The notes under the pieces: generated by a model
Seen by the model: the letters and a program-made list of their open reading frames with translations, nothing else
The model's database searches: none
What the model was told of the DNA's origin: nothing
In this document: positions 17,969-55,056 of the stretch, one piece after another
Layout of the letters: each line of letters begins with the position of its first letter
How positions within the stretch are numbered: position 1 is the first letter of the stretch
Origin: Leucoraja erinacea
Taxonomy: Eukaryota
Direction of reading: 5' to 3'
DNA length: 64,000 nt
Assembly (NCBI RefSeq): GCF_028641065.1
Contig: NC_073381.1
Location: 27,032,001-27,096,000 of the forward strand
Position numbers and translations under genes: made by a program

Positions 17969-18201
17969 NNNNNNNNNNNNNNNNNNNNNNNNNNNNNNNN
18001 NNNNNNNNNNNNNNNNNNNNNNNNNNNNNNNNNNNNNNNNNNNNNNNNNNNNNNNNNNNNNNNNNNNNNNNNNNNNNNNNNNNNNNNNNNNNNNNNNNNN
18101 NNNNNNNNNNNNNNNNNNNNNNNNNNNNNNNNNNNNNNNNNNNNNNNNNNNNNNNNNNNNNNNNNNNNNNNNNNNNNNNNNNNNNNNNNNNNNNNNNNNN
18201 N
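17969..18201. other. Assembly gap (233 N)
   Basis: Run of N. Confidence 1.
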
Positions 18202-22494: not shown

Positions 22495-25400
22495 TACGGA
22501 CAGGGGTTTCTGCGGCAACAGACGGGATGCGAGGATGGTGTGCTGCCTTCCCGGTGCCAGGATCCAGGATGTCACGGACGGAGTGCAGAAAATCCTCAAG
22601 GGCGAAGGTGAACATCCGGAAGTGGTAGTGCATGTCGGCACAACATGTCGGAAAGAAGGGGATGAATATTCTGCAGCGTGACGGCGGTTTGACATGTTGG
22701 CAGGCAACGCAATGTCGGAAAGAAGGGGATGAATATTTCAGTTGCATGCGTGGATCTTAGAGAGAGGTTAACAGAAGGTAATGTTGTAATGGTGGTGACG
22801 CAAAGGTCCAAAATAAGTGCGAGGTTAGGGTCGTGGGGGAGAAGTGGCAAGGATGCTCCAGGGGTTATTTCCGGATAATGCTTCCAGGTTTCCCAGCAAT
22901 GCAGTGGTGGAAGCTGGCAGATAGTAACAGTTATCTGGGGCGGGACCAGGGTTTGGCAGGCAGGTTTTGCAACTTCTACACGGGTGGCTTTAAACTGAAT
23001 AAGGGAGGTAGGGTGTCGAATGGGATAGTGGAGGATGGAGTTAAAGGGAAAGGGTTTCTTAAATGTGTGAGCGTAGAGACCGAGGGGTGTAAAATGAGGG
23101 TAGAAGCAATAGGTAGCAAGGTGAAAAGTAAAAGTGGCAGGCAGACAAAACCCGGGCAAAGATCAAAAGGAGCCACTTTTCAACATAATTGTATAAGGGG
23201 TAAGAGTGTTGTAAAAACAAGCCTGAAGGCTTTGTGTCTCAATGCAGGAGCATTCGTAATAAGGTGGATGAGTTGAATGTGCAGATAGCTATTAATGACT
23301 ATGATATAGTTGGGATCACGGAGACATGGCTCCAGGGTGACCGAGGCTGGGAGCTGAACATCCAGGGATATTCAATATTCAGGAGGGATAGAGAGAAAGG
23401 AAAAGGAGGTGGGGTAGCGTTACCGATTAGAGAGGAGATTAATGCAATGGAAAGGAAGGATATTAGTTTGGAGGATGTGGAATCGGTATGGGTAGAGCTG
23501 CGAAACACTAAGGGCCAGAAAACGCTGGTGGGTGTTGTGTACTGGCCACCTAACAGTAGTAGTGAAGTTGGAGATGGTATCAAACAGGAAATTAGAAATG
23601 CGTGCGACAAAGGCAAATTGGCAGGGGTGCCGAGGAAGAGGATTTCTTGGAATGTATGCGGGATAGTTATCTAAATCAACATGTAGAGGAACCAACGAGA
23701 GAGCAGGCTATTTTAGACTGGGTATTGAGTAATGAGGAAGGGTTAGTTAGCAATCTTGTTGTACGTGCCCCCTTGGGCAAGAGTGACCATAATATGGTTG
23801 AGTTCTTCATTAGGATGGAGAGAGTGACATTGTTAATTCAGAAACAATGGTTTTGAACTTAAAGAAAGGTAATTTTGAAGGTATGAGACGTGAATTGGCC
23901 AAGATTGACTGGCAATTAATTCTAAAAGGGTTGACGGTGGATATGCAATGGAAGACATTTAAAGACTGCATGGATGAACTACAAAAATTAATCAGGGAAG
24001 GTAGTACATCCGTGGATAACAAGGGAAATCAGGGATAGTATCAAAGCGAAGGATGATGCGTACAAATTAGCCAGAAAAAGCAGCATACCGGAGGACTGGG
24101 AGAAATTCAGAGACCAGCAGAGGAGGACAAAGGGCTTAATTAGGAAAGGAAAAATAGATTATGAAAGAAAACTGGCAGGGAACATAAAAACTAACTGCAA
24201 AAGTTTTTATAGATATGTGAAAAGAAAGAGATTAGTTAAAACAAAGGTAGGTCCCTTGCAGTCAGAAACAGGTGAGTTGATCATGGGGAACAAGGATATG
24301 GCGGACCAATTGAATAACTATTTTGGTTCCGTCTTCACTAAGGAAGACATAAATAATTTGCCAGAAATAGCAGGGGACCGCGGGTCAAAGGAGTTGGAGG
24401 AATTGCGTGAAATCCAGGTTAGCCGGGAAGTGATGTTGGGTAAATTGAATGGATTAAAGGCCGATAAATCCCCAGGGCCAGATAGGCTGCATCCCAGAGT
24501 ACTTAAGGAAGTAGCTCCAGAAATAGTGGATGCATTAGTAATAATCTTTCAAAACTCTTTAGATTCTGGAGTAGTTCCTGAGGATTGGCGGGTAGCAAAT
24601 GTAACCCCACTTTTTAAGAAGGGAGGGAGAGAGAAAACGGGGAATTACAGACCAGTTAGTCTAACATCGGTAGTGGGGAAACTGCTAGAGTCGGTTATTA
24701 AAGATGGGATAGCAGCACATTTGGAAAGTGGTGAAATCATTGGACAAAGTCAGCATGGATTTACGAAAGGTAAATCATGTCTGACAAATCTTATAGAATT
24801 TTTCGAGGATGTAACTAGTAGCGTGGATCGGGGAGAACCAGTGGATGTGGTGTATCTGGACTTCCAGAAGGCTTTCGACAAGGTCCCACATAAGAGATTA
24901 GTATACAAACTTAAAGTACACAGCATTGGGGGTTCAGTATTGACGTGGATAGAGAACTGGTTGGCAAACAGGAAGCAAAGAGTAGGAGTAAACGGGTCCT
25001 TTTCACAATGGCAGGCAGTGACTAGTGGGGTACCGCAAGGTTCAGTGCTGGGACCCCAGCTATTTACAATATATATTAATGATCTGGATGAGGGAATTGA
25101 AGGCAATATCTCCAAGTTTGCGGATTACACTAAGCTGGGGGGCAGTGTTAGCTGTGAGAAGGATGCTAGGAGACTGCAGGGTGACTTGGATAGGCTGGGT
25201 GAGTGGACAAATGTTTGGCAGATGCAGTATAATGTGGATAAATGTGAGGTTATCCATTTTGGTGGCAAAAACAGGAAAGCAGACTATTATCTAAATGGTG
25301 GCCGACTAGGAAAAGGGGAGATGCAGCGAGACCTGGGTGTCATGGTACACCAGTCATTGAAAGTAGGCATGCAGGTGCAGCAGGCAGTGAAGAAAGCGAA

Positions 25401-26058
25401 TGGTATGTTAGCTTTCATAGCAAAAGGATTTGAGTATAGGAGCAGGGAGGTTCTACTGCAGTTGTACAGGGTCTTGGTGAGACCACACCTGGAGTATTGC
25501 GTACAGTTTTGGTCTCCAAATCTGAGGAAGAACATTATTGCCATCGAGGGAGTGCAGAGAAGGTTCACCAGACTGATTCCTGGGATGTCAGGACTGTCTT
25601 ATGAAGAAAGACTGGATAGACTTGGTTTATACTCTCTACAATTTTGGAGATTGAGAGGGGATCTTATAGAAACTTACAAAATTCTTCAGGGGTTGGACAG
25701 GCTAGATGCAGGAAGATTGCTCCCGATGTTGGGGAAGTCCAGGACAAGGGGTCACAGCTTAAGGATAAGGGGGAAATCCTTTAAAACCGAGATGAGGAGA
25801 ACTTTTTTCACACAGAGAGTGGTGAATATCTGGAACTCTCTGCCGCAGAGGGTAGTCGAGGCCAGTTCATTGGCTATATTTAAGAGGGAGTTAGATGTGG
25901 CCCTTGTGGCTAAGGGGATCAGAGGGTATGGAGAGAAGGCAGGTACGGGATACTCAGTTGGATGATCAGCCATGATCATATTGAATGGCGGTGCACGCTC
26001 GAAGGGCCGAATGGCGTACTCCTGCACCTAGTTTCTATGTTTCTATGTTTCTATGTTT
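22495..26058 (+). mobile_element. CR1/HER1 LINE, 5'-truncated (ORF1 esterase remnant, ORF2 APE+RT, (TTTCTATG)n tail)
   Basis: RMVCCLPGARIQDV...VVVHVGT (SGNH-type ORF1); LCLNA-SIRNK, GITETW, GKSDHN (APE, frameshifted); RT ORF 24217-25965. Confidence 0.9.
24217..25965 (+). pseudogene. CR1 ORF2 reverse transcriptase region, probably inactive
   Basis: NYRPVSLTS, YLDFQKAFDKV, GVPQGSVLGP; catalytic FADD reads FADY here (FADD in the copy at 53569-54147). Confidence 0.85.
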
Positions 26059-35805: not shown

Positions 35806-36371
35806 CAAAGCACTATCAAAGGTTTATGTTTAGGTTTAGGTTTATAATTGTCGTATGTACTGAGGTACAGTGAAAAACTTTGCATGCAATCCAATCAAAG
35901 CAAATAATACTGTACATAAACATAATTAAGTCAAATTCAACTATAATAGTTAGCGAGAATGGATAGGTACAGGATGCAGAATTTAGTTTCCAGCATTGCA
36001 GCGCACCAGTTCCTGAGACAAAGTCCACTGTCTGCAGCAGGGTAGACGGGAATCCGACAGTACCTTATTTTATGGAAAGAAGTTTTCAGATTTTCTATCC
36101 TTTATGTGGAGATAGGTACATAACGCTTGGGCAGCTTACATCATTACATTGGTATTTAACTTCATTTTTTTTTTTTTTTGAAAATATTTTTTATTGGAGA
36201 TAGGTACATAACCTATTACATCATTACAGTCTTACATTTTTAAATTGATAATATTGTCAGTTATTATTACATTGTCTCCAATACCTTTTGCCTTTTTCTT
36301 CCTTTTTTTTTTAAACTAGATAGAACTAAAGAGATAGATGAGGTAAAGAAAGAAAAGAAAGAGAAGAAAAA

Positions 36372-36406
<35 letters not shown>

Positions 36407-36516
36407 AAAAAGATAGTTAAAGAAGAATGGAAAAATTTATTAAAATAAAAAACATCGTTCGAGATATGTTCGTACATTTCAGAGTATAGCATTTCATCCA
36501 TTCTTTAGCCCGAGTG

Positions 36517-39500
36517 CTAGTCAGGTTCCTGTGCTGAACTATTCTGACCCTTTAAGTAATCAATAAAAGGAGACCATGTTCCAACGAATAATTCCTGTTT
36601 GTCCAACAGGGAAAATCTGATTCTTTCCACGTTTAAGGTCTCCGTCATTTCTATAATCCACATTTTGATTGTGGGGGCCGTAGGGCCTTTCCAAAATTTT
36701 AGAATTAATTTTTTTCCTGTTATTAAACTATAATCAATAAAGTTTCTTTGTGTTATTCTAAATGTTTGATTTAATTCTAATATTCCGAGTATTATTAATT
36801 TTGGATCTGGGTCCAATTGTGTGTTGGTTACTTTAGATATTATACTAAAAATATTTACCCAGAATTTTTTAATTTTTATACAGTTTGCAAACATATGAGA
36901 TAATGTAGCTTCTAAATGTTGACATTTATCACATATAGGTGAAATATGTTGAAAAATTTTATGTAGTTTTGTTTTTGAATAATGTAACCTATGTATTACT
37001 TTAAATTGTATTAGAGAATGTCTGGCGTTTAGTGAACACTGATGTATGTGTTGCAAACTTTCTTCCCAAGTATCTTTCGTTATTACTTGATTTAATTCTT
37101 TTTCCCATGTTTGTCTGTGTAAGTCCGTCGAAGGAATGTCACTGTCTAATAAGATATTATATATATAAGATATTAATTTTTCTGTATTAGGATGTTTGTT
37201 CCAACATTCATCAAGAATTTCTGAGTTTCTAATTCGAAAATTTTGAGAGTTCGATTTTACATAATCTCTAAGTTGAAGATATCTGAAATAATCATTTCCT
37301 CGAAGTCCATAAGTCTGTTGCAACTCCTGAAATGTCAGAAAAGTGCCTTCCTTGTAAAGTTGTCCCATATTTTTAATTCCATAATTCTTCCATTGTGTAA
37401 AACCCCCGTCCAACCATGAAGGCTTAAACAAAGGATTATTCACAATTGGAAGAAAAAGTGATAAATTATCTAATTTTAATGTCTTTTTTAATTGTTTCCA
37501 AATTCGTATAGCACTAAATATTATAGGGTTTTCCCTATAAATTTTTTTGTTTAATTTAGACGTAGCAAATAATATCGAACCGATATCAAAAGGTAAACAA
37601 TCTTCCTTTTCCATTTTTAACCAGTCTGGTTGATGATCTATTTCTTCCAACCAGAAATTCATATTTTTAATATTAACTGCCCAGAAATAAAACAAAAAAT
37701 TAGGTAAAACCAAGCCTCCATTTATTTTTGATTTACACAGGTGTCTTTTGTTTATCCTATGATTCTTATAATCCCAGATAAAATCATTAACAATAGAGTC
37801 CAATTTTTTTTTAAAGTTTTTTGCCAGATATATCGGAATTGTCTGAAAAAGGTATAATATTTGCGGTAAAAAAATCATTTTTATGGCATTAGTTTTGCCA
37901 ACCATTGAGATAGGAAGTGTTTTCCAGTATTGAATATTCTTATGTAGTTTATTCAGTAATGGGGGGAAATTTGCTTTAAATAATGATGTATATATCTTAG
38001 TTACATAAATACCTAGATATTTAAATTTTTCATTTACTATTTTAAATGGAAATTGTTGTATTATCTGTTTGTTATGTTCCCTTATTGGCATAATTTCACT
38101 TTTATTCCAATTTATTCTGTATCCTGAAAGTGAACCAAATTGGGTTATTAGCTTTAATAAGTTTGGGATACTAATTTCTGGTTTTGTAATGTAAATTAAT
38201 ACATCATCTGCGTATAGAGAAATTTTATTCACTGTGTCCTTTGTGTTATACCCATGTATTTCCGGATGCCCCCTAACTCTTTCTGCCAGTGGCTCAATAG
38301 CAAGCGCAAATAATAATGGAGATAACGGGCATCCTTGTCTACAACCTCTAGATAGGCTAAATTTAGATGACAACCTTTGGTTTGTAAATATTCTAGCCGT
38401 GGGATTTGTATATAACAGTTTTATCCATGTACAGAATTTCTCCCCTAGCTGCATCTTTTCCATCACCGAAAATAAATAAGGCCATTCGACCTGATCGAAT
38501 GCTTTTTCAGCGTCAAGTGAGATTATTGCTAGATCTTCATTAATAATTCTCTTGGAATATATAATATTAAATAATCTTCTTAGATTATAATATGAGTACC
38601 GTTTCTGAATAAAGCCTGTTTGGTCAGGGTGTATTAATTTATTCATCACTGTACTTAATCTATGCGCTAGTATTTTAGTTAATATTTTCTGATCTGTATT
38701 TAAAAGTGCAATTGCTCTGTATGATCCCGGGTCTTCCGGATCTTTATCAGCTTTAGGAATAAGTGTTATTATAGATTCATTTAAAGTGTCTGGAAGTTTC
38801 TGTTGAGTATAGATATACTCATACAGTCTTTGTAAACGTGGGCAAAGCAAATCATAAATTTTTTTGTAAAATTCGGAGCCTAAACCATCTGGTCCTACTG
38901 CTTTACCATTTTTTAAAGAGCCAATAGACTCCTCAATATCCTTTATCGTAATCTCCCTTTCTAATAATTCTCTATCGTTTGAATCTAAACCTTTTAAATT
39001 ACATTTTATTAAAAAATCTGCTATTCCTTCTGATTGTGCTACGGTTTTAGTTGAATAAAGGTTATGATAGTATTGGAGAAATCTATCATTTATGTCCTTG
39101 GGCATTTTTAATAATTCTCCTGTCTCTGTTCTAATTTTATGAATTATTTTTTCCCCTTCCATTTTTCGTAACTGGCGTGCTAATAGTTTTTGTGGTTTGT
39201 CTCCAAATTCAAAATGTAATTGTTTGGTTTTTTGATAAAGTTTTATTACTTGTTCTGAATACATTTTATTTAATTTATATTTCAATACAGCAATTTTATT
39301 ATGTTTTAACGTAGATGGCATTCTCGCATTTTCTATATCTAGTTGCTTGATTTCACTTTCCAATGTTTGTTGCTTAATCCTGTTCTCTTTATTATAAAAT
39401 GCTTGAGCAGAAATTAATGTACCTCGAACATACGCTTTGAACGTTTCCCACATAAGAGAAGTAGGTGTGTCAGGGTTGTCATTTACCTCAAAAAATATTT

Positions 39501-40236
39501 GAATCTGTTTAATAATATATTCCTGGCATGATCTTTCGTTCAAAATTTGTGGGTTAAATCTCCAATATGCTTGTTTCTCGGACATTCCATTTAATTTAAT
39601 CATGAATGTTACAGGTGCGTGATCTGAGATTATAATGTTATGGTATTTTGAATTATAAATAAATGGGATAAACGTAGAGTCAACTAAAAAATAATCTATT
39701 CTTGAGTATGTTTTGTGTACTGGTGAGTAAAATGAATATTCCCGTCCAGTTGGGTTTTCTATTCTCCAGACATCCTTAATATTAGTGGTATTAATAAATG
39801 AATTTAAAAATACACTTGATTGAGATTTTGCTTTTTTTTGCCTTGATGATCTATCTAAGTATGAATCTAATGTACAATTGAAGTCTCCTCCAATTATTAA
39901 TTTATATTGTGTAAATTCAGGAATTTTATTAAATGTTTTATTAAAAAACGTGGGGTTATCAAAATTAGGCCCATAAACATTAAGAAGGATCACTTTTTCT
40001 CCATTTAACTCTCCAACTAATATAATATATCTACCATCAATATCCACTATTGTTGAAGAGTTCGTAAAAGGTATTCCTTTACGAATTACTATTGCAACTC
40101 CTCTGGACTTGTGGGAAAAGGAGGAATGATATGATTCAGCGATCCACTTAGCTTTAAGTCTATGTTGAGATTCCTTTTTAAGGTGTGTTTCTTGAAGAAA
40201 TATTATATCTGTTTTGATTAAATTTAGATGTGCCAA
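36517..40236 (-). CDS. L1 ORF2p (APE endonuclease, RT, Cys-rich domain); native N-terminus disrupted
   Basis: FLQETH, GGDFN, SRIDYF, SDH; RQGCPLSP, YADD; CDKC...HMFANC; upstream SWNVKGIN cut off by TGA at 40248-40246. Confidence 0.9.
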   Translation of the reverse strand: MAHLNLIKTDIIFLQETHLKKESQHRLKAKWIAESYHSSFSHKSRGVAIVIRKGIPFTNSSTIVDIDGRYIILVGELNGEKVILLNVYGPNFDNPTFFNKTFNKIPEFTQYKLIIGGDFNCTLDSYLDRSSRQKKAKSQSSVFLNSFINTTNIKDVWRIENPTGREYSFYSPVHKTYSRIDYFLVDSTFIPFIYNSKYHNIIISDHAPVTFMIKLNGMSEKQAYWRFNPQILNERSCQEYIIKQIQIFFEVNDNPDTPTSLMWETFKAYVRGTLISAQAFYNKENRIKQQTLESEIKQLDIENARMPSTLKHNKIAVLKYKLNKMYSEQVIKLYQKTKQLHFEFGDKPQKLLARQLRKMEGEKIIHKIRTETGELLKMPKDINDRFLQYYHNLYSTKTVAQSEGIADFLIKCNLKGLDSNDRELLEREITIKDIEESIGSLKNGKAVGPDGLGSEFYKKIYDLLCPRLQRLYEYIYTQQKLPDTLNESIITLIPKADKDPEDPGSYRAIALLNTDQKILTKILAHRLSTVMNKLIHPDQTGFIQKRYSYYNLRRLFNIIYSKRIINEDLAIISLDAEKAFDQVEWPYLFSVMEKMQLGEKFCTWIKLLYTNPTARIFTNQRLSSKFSLSRGCRQGCPLSPLLFALAIEPLAERVRGHPEIHGYNTKDTVNKISLYADDVLIYITKPEISIPNLLKLITQFGSLSGYRINWNKSEIMPIREHNKQIIQQFPFKIVNEKFKYLGIYVTKIYTSLFKANFPPLLNKLHKNIQYWKTLPISMVGKTNAIKMIFLPQILYLFQTIPIYLAKNFKKKLDSIVNDFIWDYKNHRINKRHLCKSKINGGLVLPNFLFYFWAVNIKNMNFWLEEIDHQPDWLKMEKEDCLPFDIGSILFATSKLNKKIYRENPIIFSAIRIWKQLKKTLKLDNLSLFLPIVNNPLFKPSWLDGGFTQWKNYGIKNMGQLYKEGTFLTFQELQQTYGLRGNDYFRYLQLRDYVKSNSQNFRIRNSEILDECWNKHPNTEKLISYIYNILLDSDIPSTDLHRQTWEKELNQVITKDTWEESLQHIHQCSLNARHSLIQFKVIHRLHYSKTKLHKIFQHISPICDKCQHLEATLSHMFANCIKIKKFWVNIFSIISKVTNTQLDPDPKLIILGILELNQTFRITQRNFIDYSLITGKKLILKFWKGPTAPTIKMWIIEMTETLNVERIRFSLLDKQELFVGTWSPFIDYLKGQNSSAQEPD

Positions 40237-41259
40237 AACTTTATTTCACTTAATTGGTTCATTGATTCCCTTGACATTCCAACTACCAAATGGTATATCC
40301 CTGACCCCCTCTTGTCATGTTAACATCTTGCATATTGTTTCTAAGGTGGTCTATAACCGAGCAGAAGGTACAACACATAGAACCTGACCCTGCTCCCGAA
40401 CCTCAAATAGATGAATTTAAAATCATATACATCGCTCTTCCGAACACATCTCCTTGTATTAGTCTTATTTTTCCATTCAAACATTAAGTTATAAAAATAT
40501 TTAAAGTGAAAAAAGTGATAGAGTTGATTAGTGTAGAGTGAAAGAAAAAGAACTACATCTACAATTAGTGTAGTTAGTGATAGCCACACTAACGTGGCTA
40601 GAATTCTAAAGACTTCCGTAGCCTTTGTAAGAAAAAAAAATTCCCAGCTCCGTGCCCGAAGAAAAAAAAAAAGATTATTTCTAACATTCAAATAACTTCT
40701 TTGGGAGTAACAAACTTATTTACATACCCATACATACACACACACACACATATATATATATATACCCATATGTATACATACATAAGCACGTAACCCTGCA
40801 GAAAAGTTCAAGAACAGCAAAAATTCACAACGTTATTATTCTCTACATATCATATTAATTTTTTCGCTAAATCTATAAATTTAATTTTAAATTGAAAAAT
40901 AAAGAGAAAAACCGTCAAACTTTATTATGATGTAGGCTAATTTACCTCTTACATATCTTCCTATATAATATAAGTATGTAATTCATTTCTACGTTAATCG
41001 AAGACTATTAATTATTAATCATTGTTATCAATCATATACAGTATTAACTTTTTATGAGAAATGTTAATGTTAATAATTTTAGTGGTAATATGGATATTTA
41101 ATAATGGATTTTTAAAAATACAAAGATCACGGTTTTATCCAATGTCCTCCGTCGATTTCGGTTTCCGAATGTCCTTAAAGCTCTTGAAAGAACTTTAAAG
41201 GTCCTTTTAGATCTGGCGGTCCTGTTAGTCCTTGACTCCTAAGGAGTAATGTAAATTCT

Positions 41260-42264
41260 TCAGTCTATGGTCATGTTACCGACTTCTTTGGCATATTCCA
41301 GTGCTTTTTCGTGGTCTGTAAAAAAGTGCTCCTTGGACTTGTAGGAGACTCTTAGTCTTGCGGGATAAAGCAAGCTGTATCTCAAATCAGGTACATTCTT
41401 CAATATTCTTTTTGTCTCAGTGAACAGCGCTCTTTTCTTGAAGACTTCTGCCGGATAATCTCGGTAAATACTGAATCTCACACCTTCAAAGAGGAGCTGT
41501 CCGCCTCGAACAATTTTCTTCATTATATCGTCAAATTCATGATCCAGTTGCACTTTTACGATAATTTGTCTTGGATGGGCATCATCTTGTGTACGACGTC
41601 GCTGCGCTCTATGAGCTCGACCGAGTGAAGGTTTGTGATCCAATTTTAAGGCTTTTTGTAGTAGGTCTGCCACAAAATCCCGAGTGCCCATTTCCCTCTC
41701 ACTTCCTTCTTTCACCCCTACAATTCTTAGATTCTTACGTCTTTGACGCCCCTCCAAATCGGTACATTTATCACTTAATTTGATCACCATATTGGAGAGG
41801 CGTTGGTTTTCAGTAAGGAGTCGACTTACAGTTTCCGCACTTGTCGTCGCCCATTTCTCAAGTTCGGTTATCGCTATTCTATGTTGATCAAGTTCGTGAT
41901 GAATGGGGTCCACCTCCGTTTTAACCTTCGTTTCCACCGAAACGAGCCTGGCTTCCAGCACTTCCATCTGATCCTTGACCTCTTCCTCCCTCGTCCTCTT
42001 CCAGATTTCCAGCATTTGTTGAACGGTAGAATGCATTTCTGCTTTAAAATCTACCTTAAAAGCGTCAAGTACCTCTTTAAAATTCTCTCCAAAGGTTTTC
42101 ATTTCGGCAGCGAGAAAGGTTTTAAGATCCTCCATTTCAGACTTTTTCTGTTTCATTTTCTTTGGAGGGTCTTCCTGGGCCATCGTTGTAACTGAGGCCG
42201 AGGCCTCTGTAGGGCCTTCCTCTTCCATCTGCGGTTTCCCTTTAACGGCTTTTTTTTGTGTCAC
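41260..42264 (-). CDS. L1 ORF1p (coiled coil + RRM + CTD)
   Basis: Coiled-coil N-half, DLEGRQRRKNLRIVGVKEG, RAHR, YPARLRV; probable true ATG at 42290 is one base out of frame across a G8 run. Confidence 0.88.
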   Translation of the reverse strand: MTQKKAVKGKPQMEEEGPTEASASVTTMAQEDPPKKMKQKKSEMEDLKTFLAAEMKTFGENFKEVLDAFKVDFKAEMHSTVQQMLEIWKRTREEEVKDQMEVLEARLVSVETKVKTEVDPIHHELDQHRIAITELEKWATTSAETVSRLLTENQRLSNMVIKLSDKCTDLEGRQRRKNLRIVGVKEGSEREMGTRDFVADLLQKALKLDHKPSLGRAHRAQRRRTQDDAHPRQIIVKVQLDHEFDDIMKKIVRGGQLLFEGVRFSIYRDYPAEVFKKRALFTETKRILKNVPDLRYSLLYPARLRVSYKSKEHFFTDHEKALEYAKEVGNMTID

Positions 42265-42311
42265 ACGGGGGGGGTACGTTGTAGCGACATACCATAAAGT
42301 CGCGCACCTGA

Positions 42312-42319
42312 TGACGTCA
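42312..42319. promoter_or_regulatory. Palindromic CRE (TGACGTCA) in L1 5'UTR
   Basis: Exact CRE consensus ~20 nt upstream of the probable ORF1 ATG within the CpG-rich 5'UTR. Confidence 0.4.
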
Positions 42320-42435
42320 CGCAGGCAGCCGTTCAGATCGCGATCGTTGCAGGTAAGACCCGATTTTCTCCCGTTTTTAGATTCTTCGGCACGGAGCTAG
42401 TTGGCGCTGGACTCAAGCCTCCATAGCGCCACCGT

Positions 42436-42642
42436 CTCCCAGCTAACAATGATCTATTCTACATTTTCCTTGATCTCCATTCCCTTTGTCCTGCTTTCAC
42501 ACCTTTACACTTCCTTATCTATGTGTCCCTCTCCCCTGACGTCAGTCTGAAGAAGGGTCTCGACCTGAAACATCACCCATTTCTTCTCTCCAGAGATGCT
42601 GCCTGTCCCGCTGAGTTACTCCAGCATTTTGTGTCTATCTTT
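42436..42642 (+). mobile_element. Penelope-associated pLTR repeat with hammerhead-like motif
   Basis: CAGTCTGAAGAAGGGTCTCGACCTGAAACATCACCC...GCTGAGTTACTCCAGCATTTTGTGTCTA. Confidence 0.65.
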
Positions 42643-52928: not shown

Positions 52929-53079
52929 TATATCTATAAAACTCTGGGGCCATCCGACCGACTGCCGTCCGGCGCCCTTCCTGCCTTTCGATTCGTGCCC
53001 GATACTCACAAAGATTGGCAGACTTGTGCCGATTCGCAGATGTCCTCCATATCTATCTATTAATATAGAAATTACTCAG

Positions 53080-55056
53080 AATAGGCCATTCGGCCCTTCG
53101 AGTACGGACCCCATTCAATATGATCATTTTGATCATCCAACTCGGCCCGTACCTTCCTCTCTCCATACCCCCTGATCCCCTCAGCCACCAGGGCCACATC
53201 TAACTCCCCCTTAAATATAGCCAATGAACTGGCCTCAACTACCCTCTGTGGCAGAGAGTTCCAGAGATTCACCACTCTCTGTGTGAAAAAAGTTCTCCTC
53301 ATCTCGGTTTTAAAGGATTTCCCCTTTATCCTTAAGCTGTGACACCTTGTCCTGGACTTCCCTAACATCGGGAACAATCTTCCTGCATCTAGCCTGTCCA
53401 ACCCCTTAAGAATTTTGTAAGTTTCTATAAGATCCCCTCTCAATCTTCTAAATTCTAGAGAGTATAAACCAAGTCTATCCAGTCTTTCTTCATAAGACAG
53501 TCCTGACATCCCAGGAATCAGTCTGGTGAACCGTCTCTGCACTCCCTCTATGGCAATAATGTCCTTCCTCAGATTTGGAGACCAAACTGTACGCAATACT
53601 CCAGGTGTGGTCTCACCAAGACCCTGTACAACTGCAGTAGAACCTCTCTGCTCCTATACTCAAATCCTTTTGCAATGAAAGCTAACATACCATTCGCTTT
53701 CTTTACTGCCTGCTGCACCTGCATGCCTACCTTCAATGACTGGTGTACCATGACACCCAGGTCTCGCTGCATCTCCCCCTTTCCCAATCGGCCACCATTT
53801 AGATAATAGTCTGCTTTCCTGTTTTTGCCACCAAAATGGATAACCTTACATTTATCCACATTATACTGCATCTGCCAAACATTTGCCCACTCACCCAGCC
53901 TATCCAAGTCACCCTGCAGTCTCCTAGCATCCTCCTCACAGCTAACACTGCCCCCCAGCTTAGTGTCATCCGCAAACTTGGAGATATTGCCTTCAATTCC
54001 CTCATCCAGATCATTAATATATATTGTAAATAGCTGGGGTCCCAGTACTGAGCCTTGGGGTACCCCACTAGTCACTGCCTGCCATTGTGAAAAGCACCCG
54101 TTTACTCCTACTCTTTGCTTCCTGTTTGCCAGCCAGTTCTCTACCACATCAATACTGAACCCCCAATGCCTTGTGCTTTAAGTTTGTATACTAATCTCTT
54201 ATGTGGGACCTTGTCAAAAGCCTTCTGGAAGTCCAGATACACCACATCCACTGGTTCTCCCCTATCCACGCTACTAGTTACATCCTCGAAAAATTCTATA
54301 AGATTAGTCAGACATGATTTACCTTTCGTAAATCCATGCTGACTTTGTCCAATGATTTCACCACTTTCCAAATGTGCTGCTATCCCATCTTAATAACTGA
54401 CTCTAGCAGTTTCCCCACTACCGATGTTAGACTAACTGGTCTGTAATTCCCCATTTTCTCTCTCCCTCCCTTCTTAAAAAGTGGGGTTACGTTTGCTACC
54501 CGCCAATCTTCAGGAACTACTCCAGAATCTAAAGAGTTTTGAAAGATTATTACTAATGCATCCACTATTTCTGGAGCTACTTCCTTAAGTACTCTGGGGT
54601 GCAGCCTATCTGGCCCTGGGGATTTATCGGCCTTTAATCCATTCAATTTACCCAACACCACTTCCTGGCTAACCTGGATTTCACTCAATTCCTCCAACTC
54701 CTTTGACCCGCGGTCCCCTGCTATTGCCGGCAAATTATTTATGTCTTCCTTAGTGAAGACGGAACCAAAGTAGTTATTCAATTGGTCCGCCATATCCTTG
54801 TTCCCCATGATCAACTCACCTGTTTCTGACTGCAAGGGACCTACATTTGTTTTAACTAATCTCTTTCTTTTCACATATCTATAAAAACTTTTGCAGTCAG
54901 TTTTTATGTTCCCTGCCAGTTTTCTTTCATAATCTATTTTTCCTTGCCTAATTAAGCCCTTTGTCCTCCTCTGCTGGTCTTTGAATTTCTCCCAGTCCTC
55001 CGGTATGCTGCTTTTTCTGGCTAATTTGTACGCATCATCCTTCGCTTTGATACTAA
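53080..55056 (-). mobile_element. CR1/HER1 LINE, 5'-truncated, frameshifted RT
   Basis: ORFs 54380-55207, 54141-54371, 53569-54147, 53072-53596 tile the CR1 RT; nearly identical to 24035-26030. Confidence 0.9.

Follow-up and report, generated by a model that had tools for sequence, protein, structure and literature searches.

Human L1 is reportedly able to translate ORF2 by termination-reinitiation, as Alisch is said to have found in 2006, and mouse L1 is said, after work by Li in the same year, to contain an IRES. For human L1, the 5'UTR has also been reported to contain a short uORF. The accessible part of the L1 literature leaves open by what route ribosomes reach ORF2 when the spacer is long and rich in AUGs. 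According to the available portion of PMC5381506, such a long spacer is thought to be ancestral, and GAGCTCCG occurs at about +40 in frog L1 5'UTRs, i.e. the 5' core considered below was already known. For a megabat L1, the portion of PMC4072516 at hand describes an approximately 3.3-fold decrease in retrotransposition after removal of the spacer AUGs. Shunting in the pararetroviruses CaMV and RTBV, in RTSV and in prototype foamy virus involves a short 5'-proximal ORF that ends just before a stable helix, as described in the accessible part of PMC5902531; there, the gap between stop and helix is given as 7 and 8 nt for RTBV and RTSV, respectively, and a GAG UAG UCG stop context is reported for both of these shunts.

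The stretch analysed here, referred to as the window, comprises 64,000 nucleotides of Leucoraja erinacea contig NC_073381.1. An L1 copy with the following features was found on its minus strand.

36165..42434, minus strand: near full-length L1 of a skate-type family, damaged by frameshifts and one stop
42413..42424, minus strand: cap-proximal short ORF of 3 codons plus stop, the stop lying 12 nt 5' of the helix
42382..42400, minus strand: predicted 5' arm of the helix, with a conserved GCTCC core (42397-42393) and a family-specific 3' extension
41260..42290, minus strand: ORF1, which the helix would loop out; open from 42228 in this copy
40334..41259, minus strand: inter-ORF spacer, about 930-945 nt, 30% GC
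40644..40663, minus strand: predicted 3' arm of the helix, flanked by U-tracts at 40672-40662 and 40640-40632
40341..40715, minus strand: spacer reading frame, 124 codons from stop to stop
36517..40333, minus strand: ORF2 (endonuclease and reverse transcriptase), broken near 40297 and at 40248-40246, open over 40245-36517

The 5' end of the element was placed at about 42434, the adjoining repeat diverging at 42430-42441, and the 3' end is marked by AATAAA and an A-tail at about 36195-36165. No target-site duplication was seen by eye, the 5' end abutting another repeat, and no second copy of the L1 was found in the window. Judging from likeness to proteins P0001 and P0003, the family start of ORF1 is probably at 42290. 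Relative to the window, the relatives' contigs show a single-base difference at each of 40297 and 42296, and they do not have the window's stop at 40248-40246. ORF2 matched the Pfam domains Exo_endo_phos (6.5e-12) and RVT_1 (6.4e-40) and was 37-55% identical to fish LINE-1 relatives. ORF1 shared 82% identity with a Rhinoraja longicauda (skate) protein named for a LINE-1 transposase domain; the Pfam search gave no direct match for ORF1 itself, and one relative carries PF02994. On its ORF2 domains, L1-type ORF1, short 5'UTR, long spacer, AATAAA and A-tail, the element is assigned to the L1 clade, as a long-spacer type of non-mammalian kind.

Presumed RNA contigs from two studies skipped 241 nt of ORF1, with one letter between, at 41773-42015, and P0003 is without the same stretch, in frame; this may reflect a deleted copy or a splice taking out the coiled coil. 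Beyond the A-tail, at 36140-36090, a diverged second copy of the L1 3'-end sequence was present, possibly as a result of insertion into the tail of an older copy. The window also contains a pair of 2-kb repeats, 96% identical and oppositely oriented, at 24036-26021 and 53079-55055, together with further fragments; short repeats are numerous, and the assembly is interrupted by a gap at 17969-18201.

The original prediction was that a motif near the 5' end of the L1 RNA pairs, with one bulge, with a motif in the spacer. Both motifs were found where it had placed them on the minus strand, and the 17 bp it described were extended to 19: when the 2,181-nt RNA reaching from the 5' end up to the start of ORF2 was folded, 42400-42382 paired with 40663-40644 through 19 predicted base pairs and one bulged G, with pair probabilities of 0.66-1.0. 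The 11-nt exact part of the motif occurs without mismatch only twice in the 64 kb, in opposite orientations. The helix was the top long-range self-complement of the 2,181-nt stretch (score 40; runner-up, 34). As had been noted, the 3' arm sits between U-tracts (of 11 and 9 U) in an AT-rich spacer of about 0.9 kb, and the distance of about 330 nt to the ORF2 start agrees with the 313-328 nt measured to two candidate ATGs (40333 and 40318). Its description as a lone GC-rich patch held in part: the arm is the GC-richest 18-mer of the spacer (72%), but another patch, at 40404-40387, reaches 67%. Among the 40 entries listed, with 227 more existing, no variants at the two arms were seen. A cap-proximal hairpin also predicted in the window fold was rejected as a general feature, as it did not co-vary across families (z of 0.2 and -1.4).

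For comparison, an ORF1 pattern search was carried out, from which the best 80 of 105 confirmed metagenome loci and 3 loci from a genome collection were taken. These loci have the appearance of animal L1 copies that came along in the assemblies. Viral contigs yielded no relatives. Thirty-one families were kept, each represented by one copy with a recognisable 5' end and a spacer (28 whole spacers and 3 cut at a contig end), and the best BLAST match between any of them was at most 76% identical. The GCTCC-like core, about 41 nt past a TTCCGG-like motif at the 5' end, was fixed by pattern and by eye before the pairing tests. Six extra loci provided 5' ends only, 38 5' ends being available in all, and 15 loci (9 second copies and 6 new families) were held out for the reading-frame test. 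The rest were not used, 2 of them having almost no spacer and the others lacking a 5' end or ORF2. Three L1-like elements, L081, L082 and L083, came from bacterial genome assemblies and probably represent host contamination; L081 was 77% identical to L045.

Because the spacers of different families do not align, the compensatory co-variation by which the pairing was to be checked could not be read column by column, and pairing of each 5' end with its own spacer was instead compared with pairing with the spacers of other families. Own-family pairing was clearly favoured: with a 30-nt probe around the core, the score was 29.3 for own and 24.7 for other spacers (p=5e-5; 31 families, the window left out), and the duplex energy was -23.7 vs -20.7 kcal/mol (z=-5.7). 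When the window was included, it ranked first of 32 both in its row and in its column of the matrix. The signal was present in each of two contig groups of 18 and 12 families (p=0.013 and 5e-5, respectively), and it persisted without the shared core (z=5.5, for a target zone picked after seeing the data). Three controls gave no signal, namely the reverse-complemented spacer (p=0.16), a probe upstream of the core (p=0.21) and ORF1 as target (p=0.95). The silence of the upstream probe also led to rejection of an inverted copy of the whole promoter as the source of the match. A fourth control, a downstream probe, gave a weak signal (p=0.008) since a second, weaker family-specific antiparallel match exists between core +15..+60 and the region 300-450 nt before ORF2 (z about 3); this match extends the main helix and is clear in L009 and L026.

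The main signal peaked at core -5..+20 and, apart from the second match, was confined to core -10..+25. On the spacer side, it peaked 230-380 nt upstream of the ORF2 SWN codon (z about 7) and blurred when spacers were anchored on the ORF1 stop instead (z at most 3.3). Across families, the partner site lies 240-370 nt upstream of ORF2. Between L009 and L019, which are related families, the 5' extension differs, and the partner at the same spacer site differs correspondingly. Taken singly, 11/31 copies exceeded their own shuffles at p<=0.05, the other 20/31 not being individually significant. Held-out L026, which has a 700-nt leader, contained the short ORF, the helix and the spacer frame alike. 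In the held-out helix search, L025, L034 and L057 were weaker or ambiguous and, like L040 and L055, were without a recognised 5' end. An outlier was observed at L068:1228-1260, a strong own-family partner (-34 kcal/mol) that coincides with the end of ORF1, upstream of ORF2 by about 1,050 nt. The consensus sequences in the PMC5381506 supplement were also inspected through their first 400 letters, which is enough for the 5' ends. By eye, with no null, own-family matches of at least 10 bp (G-U allowed, at most one bulge or mismatch) were seen in about 7/12 frog, 10/17 zebrafish and 2/3 lizard clade-2 sequences. Considering these comparisons, complementarity between the 5' arm and the spacer is a real, selected, family-wide and apparently undescribed feature of long-spacer vertebrate L1s, and it is very probable that it acts, in some way, as pairing in RNA.

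An ATG was present within 45 nt before the core in 38/38 5' ends, although the filter used to display 5' ends contained ATG-bearing words and could favour the presence of an ATG, not its frame. The frame of this ATG closed before the core in 35/38 ends, compared with 5.6 in shuffles (maximum 13) and 12.5 when the ATG was held fixed (maximum 22); the other two frames had stops before the core in only 7 and 5. The resulting ORFs are 1-9 codons long, and their stops end mostly at core -14 to -16 (18 cases) or -6/-7 (10 cases). The three exceptions were L019, L069 (stop ending at +1) and L016 (a flank ATG taken first). For the 15 strong helices, the gap between stop and helix ranged from -3 to 17 nt with a median of 11; it was 6-17 nt in 13/15 and -3 and 1 nt in the remaining two. 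Several of the stops read GAG TAG TCG. By eye, all the consensus sequences of the PMC5381506 supplement from frog (12), zebrafish (17) and lizard clade 2 (3) carry this short ORF. Among mammalian L1 5' ends of that supplement, likewise inspected by eye, 12/14 had a 3-4-codon ORF starting from the YY1-site ATG, and in human L1 two AGCTCC motifs lie downstream of it. The stop of the short ORF overlaps a conserved (A/G)GACG motif at about +30, which we take to resemble the DPE promoter element. Because of this overlap, and because the ORF also occurs in short-spacer mammalian L1s, it may have other uses as well.

The region before ORF2 was then found to contain a second unusual frame. One frame was free of stops from -270 to -60 in 16/29 families, compared with 2.7 in shuffles (maximum 7), 1/29 on the antisense strand and 0/16 and 1/20 further upstream in the spacer. 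Re-dealing the observed stops among frames gave 5.2 expected against 15/28 open, and the stop deficit begins at about -300. In the held-out loci, the frame was open in 14/15; for three families with an interrupted first copy, the second copy was among the open ones. The frame starts close to the 3' arm, reaches as far as the ORF2 AUG and is 70-100 codons long. A stop closing a frame of at least 40 codons lay within 12 nt of the ORF2 ATG in 16/24 families vs 9/120 and 19/140 control ATGs, and within 28 nt in 24/24. The first ATG past the helix was in the open frame in 10/16 families, whereas later ATGs were so in 25/77 (p=0.016); several families have both the beginning of the open frame and its first ATG on the upstream side of the 3' arm. 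In the window, the stop of the spacer frame ends 7 nt upstream of ATG 40333. The first ATG past the helix opens a 1-codon ORF there, the spacer frame is free of ATG for 160 nt, its first in-frame ATG is at 40484 (47 codons), and a near-cognate ACG lies in frame at 40619, directly past the U-tract. The spacer-ORF peptides look unrelated between families, and hydrophobicity gave no support for a protein role, as in 16 families it matched the level seen in the other frames (p=0.74).

The proposal that the pairing serves ORF2 expression stood in one respect and failed in another. The position of the partner is set relative to ORF2 and not to the ORF1 stop, which fits such a role. Delivery of ribosomes followed by plain scanning, however, is disfavoured since 3-12 ATGs per family, not depleted, intervene between the partner site and ORF2.

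The reading that we favour, with confidence evenly balanced against doubt, is a short-ORF-dependent shunt of the pararetrovirus type over ORF1, followed by translation of the spacer ORF and reinitiation at ORF2. The arms would pair in the sense L1 RNA and loop out ORF1. Ribosomes leaving the short ORF would be unable to melt the helix and would shunt across it, as in plant pararetroviruses; they would then start on the spacer ORF, the numerous AUGs of the spacer being passed during elongation. Termination beside the ORF2 AUG would drive reinitiation, a step already proposed in the case of human L1. Ribosomes failing to start at the short-ORF AUG would melt the helix and make ORF1p, and the device would thereby set the ORF1p:ORF2p ratio. 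Closure of the spacer ORF beside the ORF2 AUG fits both the L1 termination-reinitiation model and the result of AUG removal in megabat L1. What speaks against this reading is the composition of the landing zone, the want of a G-U excess, the minority of copies that stand out singly, the late first ATG of the spacer frame in the window, the frames that open ahead of the 3' arm in several families, the even spread of UGGGA and the possible other uses of the short ORF. The complementarity, its place, the short ORF and the spacer frame rest on sequence and comparison, and every step taken by the ribosome is one that we infer.

Alternatively, the helix might bring the cap and its factors beside an internal entry site in the spacer, where ribosomes would load without translation of the short ORF, the latter merely keeping a promoter-imposed ATG harmless. 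We consider this unlikely. It would explain the ORF2-anchored position of the partner as well as the GC-richer sequence past the helix: for the 15 strong helices, AU was 0.54 in the next 40 nt vs 0.61 in the spacer (p=0.004), so that the landing zone is not UA-rich on average, and in the window it was 0.70, the same as in the window spacer. G-rich tracts cluster 80-240 nt before ORF2, and a G-rich/C-rich stem-loop with an internal loop, common to six families, was observed about 150-240 nt before it.

L039:1472-1560, L045:1476-1570, L051:2152-2245, L052:4215-4312, L056:4054-4140 and L064:1668-1765: shared stem-loop

Most pairs of this stem-loop are invariant and few co-vary. IRES predictions are reported for 32/36 long spacers in the accessible part of PMC5381506. 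The spacers, on the other hand, were without an Rfam match. The scan of window positions 40200-42500 gave nothing at gathering score, dicistrovirus-type IGR IRES included; that of 15 relatives' loci gave one sub-threshold miRNA match only, and the stem-loop itself had no match in the five families scanned. Internal entry also leaves unexplained why the stop falls at core -15/-16 in ORFs of 1-5 codons whose ATGs lie at varying sites, each in frame with that stop. For an HDV-like ribozyme, considered by eye, the spacer likewise gave no Rfam match.

It is rather improbable that the helix acts as a switch or brake, damping scanning into ORF1 or masking the start of the spacer ORF, with ORF2 reached by serial reinitiation from ORF1 through the spacer ORF. 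Scanning could be slowed by a duplex of -35 kcal/mol that lies 35 nt into the RNA, the spacer ORF often begins at or inside the 3' arm, and human ORF2 reportedly needs an upstream ORF. Ribosomes leaving ORF1 would nevertheless have to cross 100-900 nt of AUG-rich spacer, which in the window holds 14 AUGs ahead of the 3' arm, and no pairing of the ORF1 stop region with the ORF2 region was found that could bridge it (z at most 2.2).

A cause at the level of replication or DNA is quite unlikely. In such a case, the inverted match would aid reverse transcription or packaging of full-length RNA, or inverted copies of the 5' end, made time and again, would renew it. The own-family signal was strongest when Watson-Crick pairs alone were scored, and G-U was not enriched over A-C (14:10 in own-family helices and 162:114 in other-family ones, in a test that would be diluted by decayed single copies); therefore, pairing of the sense RNA is not separated by this count from a DNA-level or antisense cause. 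The second antiparallel match, extending the first, is also in line with such a cause. Neither a short ORF ending before one arm nor a long open frame near the other would be predicted from it, nor would a fixed distance to ORF2.

Very unlikely, too, is a splicing bridge, in which the helix would appose a donor near the short ORF and an acceptor past the 3' arm, with splicing removing ORF1 and fusing the leader to the spacer ORF. RTBV splices a leader ORF to a distal ORF, according to the available part of PMC5902531. The best donor-like sites in the first 55 nt outscored control windows (p=4e-4), and the window has a pyrimidine tract and AG directly past the 3' arm. These donors, however, match at most 7/9 positions and are scattered, the best in the window matching 5/9, and strong acceptors were present in only 3/29 and 2/29 families in two bins past the helix, without excess. 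No joint of the 5' end to the spacer was listed in contigs of two DNA and two presumed RNA runs, which is given no weight here since contigs drop rare forms and RNA cover of the 5' end was thin. A chance match without function is suggested by the 4/300 region-wise shuffles of the window stretch that reach a score of 40, because of which the single window copy goes only modestly beyond chance, but it is largely refuted, and extremely improbable, given the family-specific signal (p=5e-5), the three null controls and its repetition in two contig groups and in held-out L026.

The finding names three short, mutable parts. If the shunt holds, a host retrotransposon performs a short-ORF-dependent jump over an entire essential ORF, the persistence of long spacers is explained, and the function of such spacers may have been understated when they were tested in a human L1 backbone. 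We suggest tentatively, as something that may but need not be the case, that the ancestral vertebrate L1 makes its reverse transcriptase by a relay consisting of the short ORF, a jump over a kilobase-scale helix looping out ORF1 and a disposable spacer ORF leading to ORF2. ORF2p would then be made solely from RNAs whose 5' end is intact, and the short-spacer reinitiation of mammals would be a simplified descendant that keeps the short ORF and the AGCTCC motif. In the literature searched, which covered few subscription journals and included the accessible portions of PMC5381506, PMC4072516, PMC5902531, PMC5972666, PMC3894237 and PMC5203782, no description of 5'UTR-spacer pairing or of a shunt in L1 was found.

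The frog L1s of PMC5381506, as far as the available text goes, resemble the present elements in their short 5'UTR with GAGCTCCG at about +40 and their long T-rich spacer; unlike here, an IRES is proposed there, no shared spacer structure is reported, and the word 'complementary' is absent from the main text. Compared with the shunts of CaMV, RTBV, RTSV and prototype foamy virus, as set out in the accessible literature, the L1 short ORF likewise stops a few nt short of a helix with arms that are unconserved in sequence, and the GAG UAG UCG stop context of RTBV and RTSV recurs in several L1 families. Unlike in pararetroviruses, the L1 helix bridges about 1.2-1.8 kb, an entire essential ORF included, rather than being a leader stem-loop, and the first long frame past it is the spacer ORF, not the target gene. 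Since the landing zone is not UA-rich, the L1 layout is not filed with the pararetroviral shunts; at most, it works like one. The Pol shunt of duck hepatitis B virus is similar in that a bicistronic retroelement RNA has its first ORF bypassed to reach the reverse transcriptase ORF; in the available part of PMC5902531, however, its take-off site is undefined, its landing site is near the Pol AUG, and no long-range helix or relay ORF is described. As in the TURBS of caliciviruses and influenza B (PMC5972666, in part), stop and start lie within a few nt of each other. Unlike there, UGGGA (TGGGA) is spread evenly over the L1 spacer, with no positional enrichment before ORF2, and the offsets are mostly +5 or +8 nt, with no fixed AUGA or UAAUG overlap. 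The start of ORF2 appears coupled to the stop of an upstream ORF, as in human L1. In human L1 the spacer is about 60 nt; here, the upstream ORF is a separate spacer frame of 70-100 codons, apparently linked by pairing to the 5' end of the RNA.
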